Source: Podarcis vaucheri (lineage: Eukaryota). Taken from it: 64,000 nucleotides of DNA. The translations under genes were made by a program, and so were the position numbers. A model generated the notes under the pieces. That model did no database searches, was not told the origin of the DNA, and worked only from the letters and a program-made list of their open reading frames with translations. Shown here piece by piece: positions 4,508 through 41,275 of this stretch. The stretch's first letter is position 1. The number at the start of each line of letters is the position of its first letter. The stretch lies in the NCBI GenBank assembly GCA_965113315.1, contig OZ220370.1; one strand, written 5' to 3'.

Positions 4508-6159
4508 TGGAAATAATAGTGACAACAGTACCACTTCCTTACCCTATTTTGTTTTTGGGAAGATAAAACACATTCCACCAACCAAGCCCAAACATTTTTC
4601 CATAATCTCCTGCAACATTCAGTTGCATGAAATTTATATCCATATTAAATGCTTGAGGTGCATCTAATCTCTGTGCGCAGCCAAAATTGCAATAGGGATG
4701 ATTCAGGTGAGATTTTCACATGCCTGAGTCAGACCTCAGGGGTTCTCTAAAGTCCTGAGGAACTCTTTGGACTTGGGTGTCATTTAAAATGAAGGGATTG
4801 CTGCATTTTTCTTTTTTAAAAAAGCAAAGCCAAGTTGACTCAGAAAACGTTCTGATCTGAGCATCATGGACATGGAGGTGTAGGGGCAGTTTTCATTTTG
4901 ATGGACAGGTCTAGGTTTTAATCAAACTGAATTATTTTCCCAGAACACTTCAATGGCTGTGAATTGGGGGAGGGATTTTGCAGTAACCTTGTTTAGCATA
5001 CGTCCATTCTTCCTTTTTGAGTTCTGTCTGGGAAAGAATGGTGTTTAGAAGACCAGTGGGCTATTGTCTTGTTTCCAAACAATTGAAACCAGTACTTTAG
5101 TCTACTTGTCTCAGTTCAGCTGTTTTTGTCACCTCCCTAACCCTATTTGGATGTCATTGTTATTAGTGTGAATCAGCTTTCCTATACTTTCCTCTTCCCC
5201 TCGCTGAGTGGTAGGGCATTTTATCCAATTTAGTTGTTTCTTAGAAAACAGAAAGATATTTGAATAAAAATAATCTGAGATAAGAATAAACATTAAAGAT
5301 TCATTATTCAATTTGTTTGTCTTCTCTTATTTTTCCCCTTAGGTTTGTGTAGCCTTTTAAGAGTCCTAACTACTGTGTGTTTATTAAAATGAATGGAAAG
5401 AGTTCTACAGCATTGTGGTAAGTGGGGTTTTTTTTTGGGGGGGTGAGTATTTTTTAAAAGTGGGGAGAGGGCTTACAACATTTTCTAGAAGTATTTTAAA
5501 TCAAATTGCAGAAATCCAGTATAATTAAGCTGTTAGACTAACTAGGGCTAAATTTGAACCATGTCTGAATGCCCTTCAACAACTCATTGTTTATTTTACA
5601 TTTTTACCTGAAAATAATATAATTTGTAGTTAGGAGAGGCAAGAATTATACAACTCTTTTGCTTAGTGGATCTGTTAATGTTCTCCACTGTGTGCAGCAT
5701 TTTGCCTCCAACCCTTAAAGGGGCTGGAGACATGGGACACACTGGACTGGTGATGCTGCCACATTGCAGCCTGGCCAAAGAAGGTTAGACATGTCCACCC
5801 TAATTTAAGGCAATGAGGCCTCATCAAATTTCCTGTAGCAGCAGCCTGACCACTTAACTGAAAGACTCTTTTTTTGCCTATTCTGCTTTTCTGGGTATTA
5901 AGGACTCATTGATTGCTACATTTGCATCAAACCATGTACAGATCTCAACTGGCAGGTGCAGTGGAGTTGGGAGTAAATAAAAGCAGATGGGACTTTACTA
6001 AAAATGAATAATTATAATAATAAAAACCTATGAACTGGTGCTGTAGGAAAGCTTATCCTAAGCAACCTTGTCACCCTATAGAATCTTGGAGTCCTGAAAT
6101 AGCATCAAACAGGCTTAAAGCTAATGACACTCCCTCTTCTTTTACAATTAACCTTGACT

Positions 6160-6798
6160 AGGTCCCATCACCTTCTGGCAAATAGCAGGGGAAGAAATGG
6201 AGGCAGTGAGACATTTTACTTTCTTGGGCTCCATGATCACCGCAGATGGTGACAGCAGCCACAAAATTAAAAGACGCCTGCTTCTTGGGAGAAAAGCAAT
6301 GACAAACCTAGACAGCATCTTAAAAAGCAGAGACATCACCTTGCCAACAAAGGTCCGTATAGTAAAAGCTATGGTTTTCCCAGTAGTGATGTATGGAAGT
6401 GAGAGCTGGACCATAAAGAAGGCTGATCACCAAAGAATTGATGCTTTTGAATTATGGTGCTGGAGGAGACTCTTGAGAGTTCCATGGACTGCAAGAAAAT
6501 CAAACCTATCCATTCTGAAGGAAATCAGCCCTGAGTGCTCATTGGAAGGACAGATCCTGAAGCTGAGACTCCAATACTTTGGCCACCTCATGAGAAGAGA
6601 AGACTCCCTGGAAAAGACCCTGATGTTGGGAAAGATGGAGGGCACAATGAGAAGGAGACAACAGAGGACAAGATGGTTGGACAGTGTTCTCGAAGCTACC
6701 AGCATGAGTTTGACTAAACTGCGGGAGGCAGTGGAAGACAGGAGTGCCTGGCGTGCTCTGGTCCATGGGGTCACGAAGAGTCAGACACGACAACAACA
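6160..6798 (+). mobile_element. BovB (RTE clade) LINE, 5'-truncated 3' fragment
   Basis: ORF 6197-6823 has FTFLGSMITADGDSS, KAMTNLDSILKSRDITLPTKV, DAFELWCWRRLLRVPWTAR and LEKTLMLGK, the BovB C-terminus. It ends 'gtccatggggtcacgaagagtcagacacgac' plus a (CAA) tail. Confidence 0.95.
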
Positions 6799-7626
6799 TA
6801 ATATCAGTCTTTTTTTGCCCTAGTCATTCCTAGAGGAGTTCTCATCAGCCTCAGCTAATTTCATATAGTAGGTACCATCCCTTTCAGCATCTCTCACCCC
6901 AAGGAGAGTTGCTGAAAATGAGGGTTTGTAACTCTAATCTTGGGAGCAAGTAGGATAATTATTTAGCCTTAACTAGTTTAGTTGCAGATATGTAAGGATA
7001 TAAAGATAAGATGGTTAAACCCACCAAGTTATTTCTGTCTTCATTCATGCGGTGTAGGGTCAATGAGAATTTATCATCTTTAACTAGTGGTTTTATTCTC
7101 ACTTGTTTGAAATAATCTCACTGCTTGTTTTATTGCCTGAAAGCTATCTTTTTGAAACATTGACCTATTTATAAATCAAATAATGCTACAAGCACTGAGA
7201 TTATCCAATACACGTTCCTGCAGAAACCACTTATTTCACTGCAGCTAGGAGCATCTTATTATAGAGTTGGAAAAAAGAATACTCAGCATTTAACAAGCCT
7301 TATAAAATTAAATAAGTCCTTATGGGCATGTAATAATTGCACCATATATATTATTTGCTCATATTCTTACAGTATTTTTGCATATAAAAGTTTAATCAAC
7401 GAATGTGCTTAATATTATTTTATTACTAGCAATTAACCAAAACAATCAATTTTAGAGAAGTGTCTACAATACTTTATGCTGAATTCTAATTAAACAGTTA
7501 CAGTTCCATTGCATAACTTTATGAGGCTATAATTTTGTTCCTAAGAAGATAAACTATGAATATAGAGGACAAACAGACCATCCTCATGAGTGTTTTTAAA
7601 AGCTGACATCCTATAAAACAGTGAAG

Positions 7627-7781: not shown

Positions 7782-9593
7782 ACACTGAAAGTATTGAGTT
7801 GTCTATTGTTTTCTCACTTGTCAACTGGCCAATGCAATCTTGCAGAACAGCAAAGTGTGACACAGCCCTTGCCATTTGCGCAGTAGAATTACCATGGAAC
7901 CAAATTTATTTGAAAATCCAAAACCAGCAGCAGATCATTTTAATAATCAGCCTTTTGCATAAGAGGCAGTGCAAGTCACTTCATTTGAGGATGATGTTTG
8001 CTTAAACACAGAGAGAAAATAAATGCAGATTATAATAAATGTCAAGGCCAATTCTTGGAATCAAACTGAGGATGAGGCCTGAATGGATCTGTGAAGAGTT
8101 CAGCATGTGGTAAAGTGGTGATGAAATAGATTTACCACTGCTGAAATGCCCTCCTCTGCATTACTGCTAAAGGTACATAAGGCAACTTTAAGTGTCACAA
8201 GGCTTCGCCAACATCTCATGAAATGCCACCGCAGGCTTGGTGACATCACATGAGAATTTGGCTTTTCTGCCCATGACATTTTCCTACCTGAAGCTGATCT
8301 CAAATGGCACTACATATACAGGAGAACACTTTACAAGCCTTCCTGCGCCACACAGATATCAATTTCTGCCTTAGGGAGCAATCATATGCTGAAGAAGCTG
8401 GCATAAAGCACAAAGGTGTTCAGTTAATGTTACACCAGATCCAAATGCCATCCAGCAGCAGGGCAGCTGCTGTTACTCTGTCTAAGCCTAACAGAGGGCA
8501 AACAAGCCTTTAAAATAGTGTGCTAAGTTTCCAGTACACATAACTGAACTTAGGATCCAGCCTAAGTCTTCTTTTGTTTCACCCCCATCACGTCCACTTT
8601 GGGTTGTTTTTTTGCACCAACCTGAAGTCAGCCTGTCTCAGCTCAACTGGTTAAGCCCTGACTCAGTAAGTTACATAAGTGTATCTTCAGCTGTACCACG
8701 GTTTGGAGTTTAATGAGCTGGGAATCAGCAAGCTGAACTGGAGATCCAATGTATCCTAAGCTGCCCAGATCTCACCCACTAAATTGACCACCACCATTCC
8801 ATAGGGCTGCCTAAAGTTGCTTCATCCCCCTGGGTGACAATGCTGACTCCAGTCTCACAAAGTACATTTAGTGGACTTTATTCATAATCAAATGTGCACA
8901 GGTATGCTTCTAATTTGAGCAATGAAGGTTGCCCAGTAAAAGGTTGTAACCTCACATACTTTGCCTCATTTCTAAACCCATTTAACTGAATTCAGTGGAA
9001 TAGACTTCCATGAGAGTATTCTTAATAACTCAGCTTTCATCAGAAAGTGTCACTTTAATCTGAGCTGTGAAGAAAACTGGAATCTATGAAAGGTGACAAT
9101 GACAGAATTCTTCTGGGCTTTAGACTGAGTGCTTTTAACTAGATATATAATAATATTCTAAATTTTGTACCATGTGCATTTCCCCCTAGAATATGACTGG
9201 TGATAGCATTATTACTTTTCTCCAGTGGGCACTTTGGAAAGCAGAGCATGTTAGTCAGTACATGTTTACATCAAAAATAGGGTGACAAATATTTATATGA
9301 TACAACATCAGTGCAATCATAGTTCAACAATCATAACCAATGAGGTTTGGATCTGGACTTCAAAATGATAGTGATATGAATCCTGCTGGGGAACCTTCTT
9401 AAATTCACCAGATTATAAAGCCATTTGATTCCACAGTCTATTGATATCTTCTATGGTATACTATTTGGTGTAAATGGATTGCACCACACTGAAGTGGGGA
9501 AAATGAGACATTTATAAGAGAAGGAAGGCTCAATCTTCTTAGAGCTTGATTTATTCAGGTTGGCCACCTGTATAATCTTATACATATACATAT

Positions 9594-9597
<4 letters not shown>

Positions 9598-9645
<48 letters not shown>
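9598..9645. repeat. (TA)n microsatellite, left flank of the PLE
   Basis: Direct reading. Confidence 0.98.
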
Positions 9646-9647
<2 letters not shown>

Positions 9648-9750
9648 TTTCGTAGATTTTCACGGGTACAGGAATGCAGGTTTTGGTGTCTTCGGGTGTC
9701 TTCCCGTGTAAGAGTCGGGGTGTCTGTGCGACGTTTCGACGAGGTCTCAC

Positions 9751-10089
9751 ACGTCCCGCCTGCCAGACATCTGGAAATTAGCCCTCCCCACAAAAACCGA
9801 CACCAGAACCAGAGGCACACAGAACGCCGTCACCAATCAACCACACCAGACCCAAACCCAGACCCTCTCCACAGACATATTACAGACTCCATCCAGTAGC
9901 CAAACTATAGTGGCACCTCCGGATGCTGCACCCCCCTGCAATCCCTACACAGATCTGGCTGGCACAAGGCACAAAACCACAGCTCGCCCCTATACACGAA
10001 GCCAAGCCAGAGCACAACTAAATGCAGCACAGCCATCTTCTCAGAAAAACTCTTCACAAGCTCAAGAGGTCAAGACACAAAAGCTTTAG
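9751..10089 (+). pseudogene. C-terminal remnant of the PLE ORF (end of GIY-YIG endonuclease plus low-complexity tail), 112 open codons, no start codon
   Basis: Manual translation gives TSRLPDIWKLALPTKTDTRTRGTQNAVTNQPHQTQTQT...RPYTRSQARAQL...KTQKL*. Not in the supplied ORF track. Confidence 0.7.
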
Positions 10090-10321
10090 CAACTAATCTA
10101 CACTTAATGACCCACCCAGTGGTATTCAGAATATCACTCATGAAATCACTCAAGATATCCCTCAAGTAATTAAGGAACAAAAGAAGAAGAGGCACACTAA
10201 TCTAGGAACTTCCTCTCTGCCCAGAACGTTGGAGGCCATACACCACACCCCTCAACAGTATTTATAGGAACTCAAACACCAGATTCTGCTCTGTTCCAGT
10301 AACAAGAAGCCGAAAGCACCA

Positions 10322-10359
10322 GCCTGAAGATGACGAGTGAGACCTCGTCGAAACGTCGC
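10322..10359 (+). ncRNA. Minimal type I hammerhead ribozyme motif (PLE-associated)
   Basis: GC-CTGAAGA-T-[GACGAG tgagac CTCGTC]-GAAAC-GTC|GC: core, 6-bp stem II, palindromic ACGT stem III, GUC cleavage triplet, 2-bp stem I. Confidence 0.75.
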
Positions 10360-10408
10360 ACAGACACCCCGACTCTTACACGGGAAGACACCCGAAGACA
10401 CCAAAACC

Positions 10409-10411
<3 letters not shown>

Positions 10412-10441
<30 letters not shown>
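10412..10441. repeat. (TA)n microsatellite, right flank of the PLE
   Basis: Direct reading. Confidence 0.98.
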
Positions 10442-10445
<4 letters not shown>

Positions 10446-12121
10446 AGATCAATTTCTGCTTGCAGCTTTAAATTTTCAGTTGGTTCTCTTTTCCATTATG
10501 CTTTTGAATTCAGCAATGAGAAATTCTAAAATTAAGAATTAATTCCCCCGATGGAAAAAGCACACATGCTTTTCGGTCATGCCTATGGCTTGCATGCTTC
10601 TTTTGGAGAGATTGGATAGTGATGATGAAAATTGTATAGGATGAAGCATAAGTCCATTCCTTCCCTATGCTGCCCACATTTCCACCCCATTTCAGCCGGT
10701 CCTCTGTACATCCTTGCTGCGTAATAGCTCCACTGGCAGAATCTCCACTGGTGTATTTGTCATGCTAGTGTGTCAGGGGCAGGCAGCAGTGGGAAGGGGC
10801 CAGTGATTTATGGGGTTCTGAGGTGGGAAAAGAGAAAGAGGCTGGGCAGTCAGAGACAGGAGAAGACAACTAGGTGCAGAAGAGCTGCAGGAAGGTACAG
10901 AGGTGGAAGAGACAGTCCCTCACAGTTTCCAGTGATTAGAAGGGGCTTAAAGCAGCAGGAGTAGCTGGAGCTGACACACAGAGGAAGTTGCTGGTGGCCT
11001 GAACACACTGCGTCAGAAGAGGGGGTTTAATTGTGCTGATGGAGGCATGGTCATGCTGTTGCTCCAACTGTTGAGTCAGAAAATACTGCAGAAGGAGATG
11101 CCTAGCTATTTTGCAGGAGCAGTGCATGTGATTCTTGCACCTTAGGAGCTGATGTCATTGCCAATAAAGAACTAAGATTTTAATTGCATGTCCTCCTTGG
11201 GGGGCTGGGTATCTTTGGGGTATAGGGATCTATATTGCACTATAGTTTGTTTTTTTCTTAAACTGATTGAATAAAGTCGATATTGTGGAAAAACCTGAAG
11301 TTTCTTGCCACTAATTTCCAAAGGAGGAAGAGTTAACCACTGCTTCATGTCTTTGCTGTATAATTCTCTTTGATGTATTACATAAAGAAAAATCATATTA
11401 CTTTACTTTTATGACTTTGAATATATGGAAGATAATTGGCACCCCTAATTGTCTGTGTACTCCAATCCTATCTTCAGATTTGACATGTTAAATGGTACAA
11501 AGCTCAATTCAGAAGCTTATCTTGATATTTATGACTAATGGCATTTTCAGTGAACAAAAAAAGAGAAAGAGAGACTCCTGCTTCTATCCTTTGCTGAAAC
11601 ATACAAATAGCATAATGCAGAAACAGAAGAATCTGAAGTGTTCTGTAGATGAAGTGAAATTTAACTTGTTTTTAAAACACTCAAAAATGCCTGACTTCTT
11701 CCTGATCCTCTCTCTCTCTCTCTTTTCAGACTGTATATAAACATGGAAAGAGCAGTTTTAAATAGAAGCAACATATGTCCAAATGACAGTTTTATTCATA
11801 AACACTTTGGTTTGAGCTAGATTTTCTTCCTCCATATGCTAGCTAGCAGTAGCAGAATTCTAAATGTCAGTCAATCAGTCCTCTTGTGGTTTTGATCACT
11901 AATATTTGGCACTGTTATTATGAACGGTTATTTTTCAAATGTTTGTCAAAATCAGGCAATTTGTTTTAAGGTGAGTCAGATACAAAAACTGACACTGTGC
12001 TAGCAAACTTGGAATGCATCAAAATCAGCACCCTTTAATAGGCCTCTGACTGTATTACAAATGATTTAAATTAGCACCTACACACAGGCAATCAATCAGA
12101 GCCTCACAGGCAACTCCAGGC

Positions 12122-20352: not shown

Positions 20353-20397
<45 letters not shown>

Positions 20398-20419
20398 GGT
20401 ATATATATATATACCGGTA
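20353..20419. repeat. (TA)n microsatellite interrupted by two TACCGGTA motifs
   Basis: Direct reading. Confidence 0.95.
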
Positions 20420-39917: not shown

Positions 39918-41275
39918 TCAGGGCTTGAACTTCCGTTTCTTGGAACTCCTGGAATGCTCAGCGGTAGGGAGGTCTCTCTTCAGAGTCCAACAGTAGTCAG
40001 CCATCATGACTGTGTCCCAGCGACCCTGATACCTGGTCTCCATCTCTTTCATGTCCTGATGGAATCTCTCCCCCTGCTCGTCACTCATTGAACCCAGGTT
40101 CTCAGGAAACCAGTCCATATGTGAAAATAGGTATTGCATCTTGACGCTCATGTTGCAGCCCAGGTTTCTGAAAGGAGTCAGCATGTTGTTGACAAGTTCT
40201 GCGTAGTTTCTGGCCTTATTGTTGCCAAGAAAGTTATTCACTACCAGAACAAATGCCTTCCACACTACCAGTTCCACTTCGTTCATTGCGTTTCCGAACT
40301 CTGGATCTCTGATGAGCTGATGGATCTGAGGACCGTCAAAGATGCCAGCTTTCAACTTCTCCATGGTCAATCCTGGAAAAGCCTGGCACAAGTAAGTGAA
40401 GCAGTCACCATCCTTGTCCAGAGCCTTGGTGAACTGCTTGATTAAGCCAAGCTTGATGTGCAGCAGTGGAAAGAGTATTCTGTCTCTGTCCACCAGAGGG
40501 TCGTTGATGACGTTCCTTTTTTTGCAAGGTACCAATTCCTCCCGCACAGGCCAGTCCTTCTTCGTGTAATGCTGAGCACGGTCCCTACTATCCCACATGC
40601 ACAGAAAACATGGGTACTTGGTGAAGCCAGACTGTTGCCCCAACAAAAAGTTCACCATCTTCAGGTCAACACAAATAAACCACTTATGCTGATCATAACC
40701 AATTTTCTCGAGCACATACTTCACAGCTTCATAGTTCTCCTTCAGTGTAGTCGAGTGAGCCAGGGGTATAGAGGCAAACCGGTTGCCGTTGTGTAGCAGA
40801 ACACATTTCAGTGATCGCTTGCTGCTGTCAATGAACAGTCTTCAATCTTTGGGTTCATACTTTGGCACTCCAAGCTTGAGCAGAAGCTGTGCAATGTCTG
40901 CACAGTACACCAAGTCCTTCTCTTCCGAGAAAAAAACGGAAGTACTCTTGATGCCTGTTGTGGAAGAAGCTGATGCAAGCACTGTCAGAGAGGAGGTTTT
41001 TTTCCTTCAATCTGGATGCCAACAACTCGGCAGAGTCCTTTGACAAGCTGAGGTCGCGAACTAGATCATTCAACTCCTTTTGGGAAAATGGATGTGGAGC
41101 ATCATCTTCAAGAACCACTTCTTCTTCTTCATGTCCTTCAACACTGGAGGCATCTTCGTCACTAATGTCAGGAAGCTCTCCGAAGATAGGCACTGGAATT
41201 TCATCACAATGAGCTATAGGATGACGTGCTGATTGAAGATCAGGATTAACTTAGTTTTGATCCCCAACTTTATGC
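39918..41275 (-). pseudogene. DDE transposase pseudogene (Chapaev3-like)
   Basis: Motifs ELNDLVRDLSLSK, RLFIDSSKRSLK, ICVDLKMV, YPCFLCMWDSR, LHIKLGL, FDGPQI, SDEQGERFHQD and MMADYCW. Lesions: TGG>TGA at 40842-40844, +1 frameshift in the A7 run near 40930, and an apparent N-terminal deletion. Confidence 0.9.

Follow-up and report, generated by a model that had tools for sequence, protein, structure and literature searches.

The enzymes of Penelope-like elements (PLEs) are the closest retrotransposon relatives of telomerase. Insertions of EN+ PLEs have been described as an inverted, 5'-truncated copy lying beside a direct copy, with palindromic joins, microsatellite targets and a tail of 30–40 bp that is often present at one end only (PMC3846280, PMC8557442, PMC8969392). 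In the available text of these reports the anatomy is described without counts and is explained through antisense self-priming or endonuclease resolution. In vitro, the related element PAc (Poseidon_Ac, from Anolis carolinensis) cuts and extends both target strands, and its reverse transcription begins at two internal sites of the RNA, between which the tail lies; PAc is predicted to form a dimer, and its hammerhead mutants insert normally (PMC11167929). How inverted, one-tailed PLE insertions are formed is left open by PMC8557442 and PMC11167929, in the parts available.

Three features of our locus have been published before: an inverted pLTR, an optional tail and a hammerhead (PMC3846280, PMC8557442, PMC8969392, PMC4209133). 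In the literature searched, which left subscription papers mostly outside its scope, we found no prior statement of the pairing rule, the same-end contrasts or the one-RNA model set out below, and no published description of the host-specific family to which our locus belongs. The accessible portion of bioRxiv 10.64898/2026.07.22.740005 adds nothing on inversions.

Anatomy of the window copy

The locus lies in a window of 64,000 nucleotides from Podarcis vaucheri, by which we mean the whole stretch of DNA that was analysed. A sequence-only reading had described (TA)24, (TA)15, perfect 77-bp arms and a 28-nt extension on the left arm only, and all four were confirmed in the sequence, the extension with the very letters stated there. 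The target site is represented by the (TA)24 tract on the left (positions 9598 to 9645) and the (TA)15 tract on the right (10412 to 10441); a target-site duplication is unreadable within (TA)n. Throughout, the element is numbered from its start codon, with +1 at window position 10330. The left arm (9646 to 9750, minus strand, 105 nt, element +8 to +112) is inverted and carries the tail, while the direct right arm (9749 to 10413, plus strand, 665 nt, element -581 to +84) lacks the tail and is 99.2% identical to an intact unit. The tail itself, found only on the left arm, consists of 28 nt (9646 to 9673, minus strand) corresponding to ORF nucleotides +85 to +112, a stretch that intact tandem units read through into the ORF. 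Within the two arms, the stretches 9674–9750 and 10337–10413 are exact reverse complements with no exact extension on either side and with seven CpGs in each. The CpG observed/expected ratio is 0.60 in the element versus 0.215 in the window. The arms meet head to head at 9749–9750, with an exact microhomology of two nucleotides (AC).

Of the 906 codons of the RT/GIY-YIG ORF, the window copy retains only the last 112 and the first 28. The final 112 codons and the stop (9751 to 10089, plus strand) encode a low-complexity C-terminus, and a Pfam search with this piece alone returned no matches. A TATA-like box is recognizable from its sequence at 10259–10267 (plus strand), and the minimal hammerhead core (10324 to 10357, plus strand) comprises CUGAAGA, an extra U, a 6-bp stem II and GAAA-CG-UC. 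The next ORF copy begins inside this core and contributes its first 28 codons (10330 to 10413, plus strand). By analogy with PAc, the outer end of the tail would be the downstream, or long, start site of reverse transcription, and the outer end of 10330–10413 would be the upstream, or short, start site.

Elsewhere in the window, Pfam searches of three other ORFs gave no match. Two open frames on the minus strand at 39918–41250 (307 and 131 aa), neither matched in Pfam, have the look of a DNA transposase and are presumably Chapaev3-like. At 6158–6823 on the plus strand, a 221-aa frame, likewise unmatched in Pfam, resembles the C-terminal part of a LINE protein and is presumably RTE/BovB-like. 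A second long TA tract, at 20353–20413, has no match to the Penelope family and represents an unused target.

The window copy is young and polymorphic

Three observations mark the window copy as a young insertion, as the sequence-only reading had proposed, and also as a polymorphic one. Across the 665 nt of the right arm, 5 positions depart from an intact unit, the sequence of the arm join occurs once in the genome, and a contig from run X3 covers 8900–9570 and 10451–10865 with 55 letters between them where the window has 880, that is, an empty site. X3 carries the same species label, comes from a different sample and study, and is the only one of the four runs compared that spans the site, so the insertion is missing from another sample under that label. 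The contigs of X4 and X5 stop short of spanning it and bear no information on presence, and those of X1 are interrupted at each of the TA tracts. Assuming unchanged flanks, the empty X3 allele would hold about 19 nt of TA, compared with 78 nt around the window insertion. Beside two-armed insertions, the TA that lies outside the aligned ends sums to a median of about 57 nt, and growth of the TA tract at or after insertion is possible.

A Penelope/Poseidon family with intact members

Using the last 214 nt as a query, we obtained at least 43 matches in the same genome, of which at least 15 top-scoring ones showed 100% identity. On contig C1, a tandem of four head-to-tail units of 2,961–2,962 bp contains intact 906-aa ORFs. 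The 906-aa ORF matched RVT_1 in Pfam (E 6.7e-15); its GIY-YIG match (E 0.0011, 19.7 bits) lies below the cut-off of 22.6, and the motif aligns with that of an anole protein. By eye, the GIY-YIG region has two Cys between its GVY and YIG halves and histidines downstream, with no cysteine cluster upstream, which is the Cys/His pattern given for the EN+ Penelope/Poseidon clade in PMC8557442. The family also has the single ORF with RT and C-terminal GIY-YIG, the tandem units forming pLTRs, and the inverted 5'-truncated copy with a one-sided tail of roughly 30 bp that characterize EN+ PLEs. Identification of the window copy as a 5'-truncated Penelope/Poseidon retroelement is virtually certain, and the Penelope-like identity suggested from the window alone is borne out by longer copies that carry the RT and GIY-YIG ORF. 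The fetched loci contain 20 intact ORFs of 903–906 aa. The family, which the earlier reading had called possibly active, is probably still active. RNA reads from a related species span the whole unit, mainly on the plus strand, with minus-strand reads also present.

The nearest named proteins are from Podarcis muralis (97% identity), Vipera latastei (82%) and Anolis carolinensis (45%), which by themselves would make a lacertid lizard the likely host. The 836-aa anole protein (P0023) aligns over 85% of length; a comparison by eye shows its N-terminus to fit the PAc RNA given in supplement 1 of PMC11167929. Its 45% identity is the support that suggests placement within the Penelope/Poseidon clade. 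For the viper protein (P0002), the 82% identity extends over half of the ORF and is far above the 45% of the anole protein; slow evolution or horizontal transfer among squamates might account for this closeness.

Searches with exact patterns located 5,409 short ends abutting ATA genome-wide and, in two registers, 4,326 and 1,979 long ends abutting ATATA, so that over 11,000 element ends lie in (TA)n; the assembly is estimated to hold roughly 5,000–6,000 insertions. Exact internal pLTR-ORF junctions numbered 494, and reversed-pattern controls for the end and junction counts gave 0. The long registers have one letter (4,326 copies) or four letters (1,979 copies) in common with the TA primer and the short end has two. 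Limited primer-template pairing is likely in this family, with 1–4 letters shared with the (TA)n primer, whereas PAc is described as priming without homology (PMC11167929).

Several loci show further arrangements. On C10 (G000:C10:113361868-113366309), 16 tandem copies of the pLTR-ORF junction lie 294 bp apart and are preceded by an inverted copy at 113361415; this array may be a minisatellite derived from the end that bears the hammerhead, an origin similar to the one proposed for retrozymes. One insertion (L047:1459-3728) contains six same-strand pLTR ends, five of them spaced by 433 bp, and another locus (L071:4522-4555) holds a head-to-head pair of intact 906-aa ORFs. A subfamily with a duplication of element -226 to -157 occurs at L103, L125, L152 and L163, and the L152 insertion has it in both arms. 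Repeated insertion into one TA tract is seen at 29 of 77 sample A loci (L089–L166), which carry at least two family segments less than 80 nt apart.

Two-armed insertions mostly pair one long with one short end

We mapped insertions in three samples. Sample A comprised all 78 clusters of listed short and long ends in C1:1-20.65 Mb (129 segments). Sample B consisted of 51 loci from a DNA search across several contigs, with a bias towards long arms (87 segments), and sample C of 60 of the 62 stretches that surround second-register long ends in C1:20.7-63.7 Mb (95 segments), one of the 62 being merged into its neighbour. The 311 segments divide into 208 two-armed insertions with both ends classed, 71 one-armed segments, 4 duplicates and 28 that were edge-cut or unclassed. 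We excluded the locus of the window itself, the tandem L069–L070, and small loci already contained in a larger stretch. Samples A and C, which were not chosen by arm length and were used for arm-end mapping, miss insertions with both ends deviating from the patterns.

Most two-armed insertions combine one tail-plus with one tail-minus end, as observed in 82 of 93 insertions in sample A, 43 of 55 in B and 50 of 60 in C. The pooled count of 175/208 compares with 103.7 expected for independent ends (p 5e-25), the remaining 33 having like ends. One-armed copies used the long end in 38 cases and the short end in 33. The positions at which the two arms stop are also correlated. Spearman coefficients reached 0.75–0.76 in 148 simple mixed pairs versus 0.29 in 24 simple same-end pairs (p 0.008 by label permutation), and 0.81 versus 0.15 when A and C only were considered (p 0.0005). 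Arm ends lay no more than 10 nt apart in 44/148 simple mixed pairs, compared with 8.9 by permutation (maximum 19). When both ends lay beyond -60, 18 of 69 pairs fell within 25 nt of each other, against 1.9 by permutation.

The arms of one insertion also share alleles. At 22 subfamily sites, mixed pairs showed 42 differences in 802 compared sites, where 268 would be expected for independent arms; same-end pairs showed 30 differences in 184 comparisons, against 61 expected. Differing arm alleles were found in 25/145 mixed versus 13/30 same-end insertions (p 0.003), and in 23/80 versus 12/21 when at least three informative sites were required (p 0.02). With A and B alone, this per-insertion contrast was not significant (20/101 versus 8/22, p 0.10). 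Private variants common to both arms numbered 36, in 21 mixed insertions, and 59 were present in a single arm only. A raw signal for closer ends in allele-matched pairs was gone once sites were equalised (median 119 versus 246 nt, p 0.41).

Among pairs of unequal arms, the tail-minus arm was the longer in 74 and the tail-plus arm in 30 (p 2e-5); the window copy belongs to the first group (665 versus 105 nt). The difference was not significant in sample C alone (18 versus 10, p 0.18), where near-equal pairs divided 9 versus 9.

A model of two-ended priming on one RNA

We infer from these finished insertions that both ends of a broken target rather likely prime cDNA on one element RNA, at two different sites, and that the two cDNA ends are then joined. 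A cut in the TA repeat would allow each end to prime reverse transcription on the same RNA, one per start site, the sites being 28–30 nt apart. The enzyme at the upstream site would lead and the enzyme at the downstream site would trail, displacing the cDNA of the leader; two protein subunits would carry out both primings. Both cDNAs would stop where the RNA ends, putatively at -42, or where the leader stalls. Their 3' ends would then anneal by a few bases and be filled in, giving a head-to-head, microhomology-mediated join that a polymerase-theta-like pathway may seal. The pairing rule would follow, since a single RNA has just one site of each kind, short and long. A minority, about 1 in 6 of the tail-plus/tail-minus class, would use two RNAs. 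Same-end pairs would need two RNAs more often, which fits their weaker correlation and commoner allele mismatch.

Some observations run against this model. Two RNAs transcribed from the same active source locus, or gene conversion at a later time, could also leave shared alleles, and same-end pairs, too, share alleles above chance (30 differences versus 61 expected). The 30 pairs with a longer tail-plus arm, the non-significant arm order in sample C alone, the failure of allele-matched pairs to have closer ends after equalisation of sites, the 33/208 insertions with like ends, the 71 one-armed segments and the RNA reads that do not show a start at -42 are further points on that side. With PAc, moreover, no difference in start site between the strands was reported and the two ends of one target were not linked (PMC11167929). 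Each end might instead prime on an RNA of its own, the two molecules often sharing a source locus, with an asymmetric protein pair fixing one long and one short start and with arm ends made alike later by hairpin-loop trimming or by shared stop sites. The 175/208 pairing and the joins would be explained equally well, the 25/145 mixed pairs with different alleles would be expected, and the hotspot of arm ends at -45 to -29 (see below) would yield equal ends without a shared molecule. However, trimming, gene conversion and a shared source should act on same-end pairs as well, and these have the weaker end correlation (0.29 versus 0.75) and the higher allele mismatch (13/30 versus 25/145). The 18/69 far-end pairs within 25 nt, compared with 1.9 by permutation, also argue against separate RNAs, and we consider this explanation unlikely.

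Joins carry microhomology and templated inserts

Of 148 joins, 75 had no insert, and their mean microhomology was 1.72 nt versus 0.57 nt in simulated random joins; microhomologies in the family range from 1 to 4 nt. The other 73 contained an insert. Among 32 inserts of 8–80 nt, 24 matched the element no more than 40 nt from the breakpoint over at least 8 nt (mean 10.5 versus 6.0). Spacerless palindromes were found at 10/148 joins, eight of them centred on self-complementary GC or TTAA. Short microhomology together with templated inserts is a mark of polymerase theta end joining.

These joins bear on the idea of a single hairpin intermediate, arising by self-priming on an antisense template (PMC3846280) or from a folded-back cDNA, in which a staggered endonuclease cut leaves the tail at one end (PMC8557442). 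With such an intermediate, a single template, arms of nearly the same length and one tail would be expected. All three are seen, and minus-strand reads of the family are present in a related species. Yet fold-back requires the tail-plus arm to be the longer, whereas the tail-minus arm is longer in 74/104 unequal pairs and so cannot be produced by fold-back of the tail-plus cDNA. A fixed stagger would not allow the two arm orders to occur side by side, and different alleles occur in 25/145 pairs. At the 10 spacerless palindromes there is no loop from which self-priming could start, and the templated inserts point to end joining. In addition, priming from target DNA at both sites is seen with PAc in vitro (PMC11167929). 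A hairpin origin is thus quite improbable, and we retain priming from two target ends on one RNA as the preferred reading.

The hammerhead does not place the join

Stem II (10332–10337 and 10344–10349) forms on folding; the stability of the ribozyme region is not unusual (z 0.01 to -0.98), and an Rfam scan of the window gave no match at the gathering score. Compared with the descriptor of PMC4209133, the conserved core, stem II and palindromic 15.2–16.2 are present at 10324–10357, while stem I has only two pairs rather than the 4–5 bp of helix I. Cleavage is predicted after 10357. The motif resembles the minimal hammerheads of metazoan PLEs in its full core, the extra base after A9, G10.1-C11.1, the 6-bp stem II and palindromic 15.2–16.2 without helix III. 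It differs in the two predicted pairs of stem I, as against 4–5 in theirs; a 2-pair stem I is also reported for Drosophila virilis (PMC4209133).

We mapped 224 arm ends exactly in samples A and C. Their density was 0.60 per nt at +1 to +20 (12/224), 0.82 at -28 to -1 (23/224), 0.80 at +21 to +40 (16/224) and 0.56 at +41 to +65 (14/224), and ends were spread past -2,600. The sole hotspot, at -45 to -29, held about 49–50 of the 224 ends (approximately 2.9 per nt). It includes position -42 (10288 in the window), the commonest arm end of the family with 13/224, and lies about 25–30 nt behind the TATA-like box. The hotspot is most simply read as the 5' end of the RNA, with -42 a likely transcription start. 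RNA reads from a related species showed no place where many molecules begin and gave no clear support for a start at -42; 15 loose read ends with library adapter near -49 agreed at only 0.67.

According to the sequence-only reading, the breakpoint falls in stem II and the ribozyme stem guided a template switch that produced the inversion. Its placement of the breakpoint holds, since the left-arm end at 9750 pairs with 10337, the final base of the 5' strand of stem II. The near-microhomology that it noted at the join holds in part: two nucleotides (AC) are exact and 6/7 letters match imperfectly, but the leading C of the 8-mers does not stand, the upstream template being G. The proposed role of the stem failed. 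Although the window join at +8 is inside stem II with those 6/7 matching letters, the +1 to +20 stretch is no richer in arm ends than the adjoining stretches, the outcome that the earlier reading had itself set against its idea. Only 2/224 ends fall at the predicted cut (+27 to +31), giving no sign of cut RNA as template, while others reach beyond -2,600, and PAc hammerhead mutants insert normally (PMC11167929). Guidance by stem II is accordingly very improbable; the window join is an ordinary microhomology join, typical for the family, and the hammerhead has no role in placing it.

The perfect inverted arms within TA repeats might suggest a DNA transposon or MITE that targets TA and ends in inverted repeats of 77 bp. 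This reading is refuted by the family map, in which arm length differs per locus from tens to thousands of bases, each arm is a nested 3' portion of an RT/GIY-YIG unit, and fixed symmetric repeats and a linked transposase are absent.

Comparison with known systems

The single window copy is ordinary. It is the family that counts, since its insertions, which number thousands, are nearly identical and in part polymorphic, preserve a record of an unsolved step. In the host, the family probably continues to generate structural variation at TA microsatellites. Our counts narrow the problem to a model that makes sharp predictions, namely a long and a short start at each target, a single RNA, and end-joining scars. 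The broader proposal, that PLE insertion proceeds by obligate two-ended priming with a protein pair, one RNA, a trailing polymerase and host end joining, is plausible but falls a little short of probable. If true, this one mechanism would account for inverted pLTRs, one-sided tails and palindromic joins across the whole PLE class.

The window's family shares with PAc the single ORF with RT and C-terminal GIY-YIG, the tandem units, the AT-rich target, the start codon at the beginning of hammerhead stem II, and a tail formed by the 5'-end stretch of the ORF between two element ends (PMC11167929). The outer end of the tail lies at +112 to +114 here and at 111–118 in PAc. It is nevertheless a separate family, with 45% identity and a longer C-terminus, and the available text of PMC11167929, which uses "inverted" once and of a blocking group, does not treat inverted arms or the pairing of start sites within an insertion. 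Relative to the published work on EN+ PLEs, pairing, end correlation, allele sharing and joins are counted here, and they favour two primed ends followed by repair.

The nearest known mechanism is the twin priming of LINE-1, in which both target ends prime one RNA, as we infer here, and the products are joined by microhomology end joining (PMC11702581). In LINE-1, annealing of the second primer takes place upstream, and the stretch of RNA that it copies is another one, with almost no overlap (PMC11702581). In the window's family, by contrast, both arms start at element 3' ends, at fixed sites 28–30 nt apart, and copy the same stretch so that they overlap, a pattern that excludes twin priming of the LINE-1 type. 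Also unlike LINE-1 twin priming, two-armed insertions are the majority outcome here (208 versus 71 one-armed segments). We conclude that the two systems work alike but leave different patterns.
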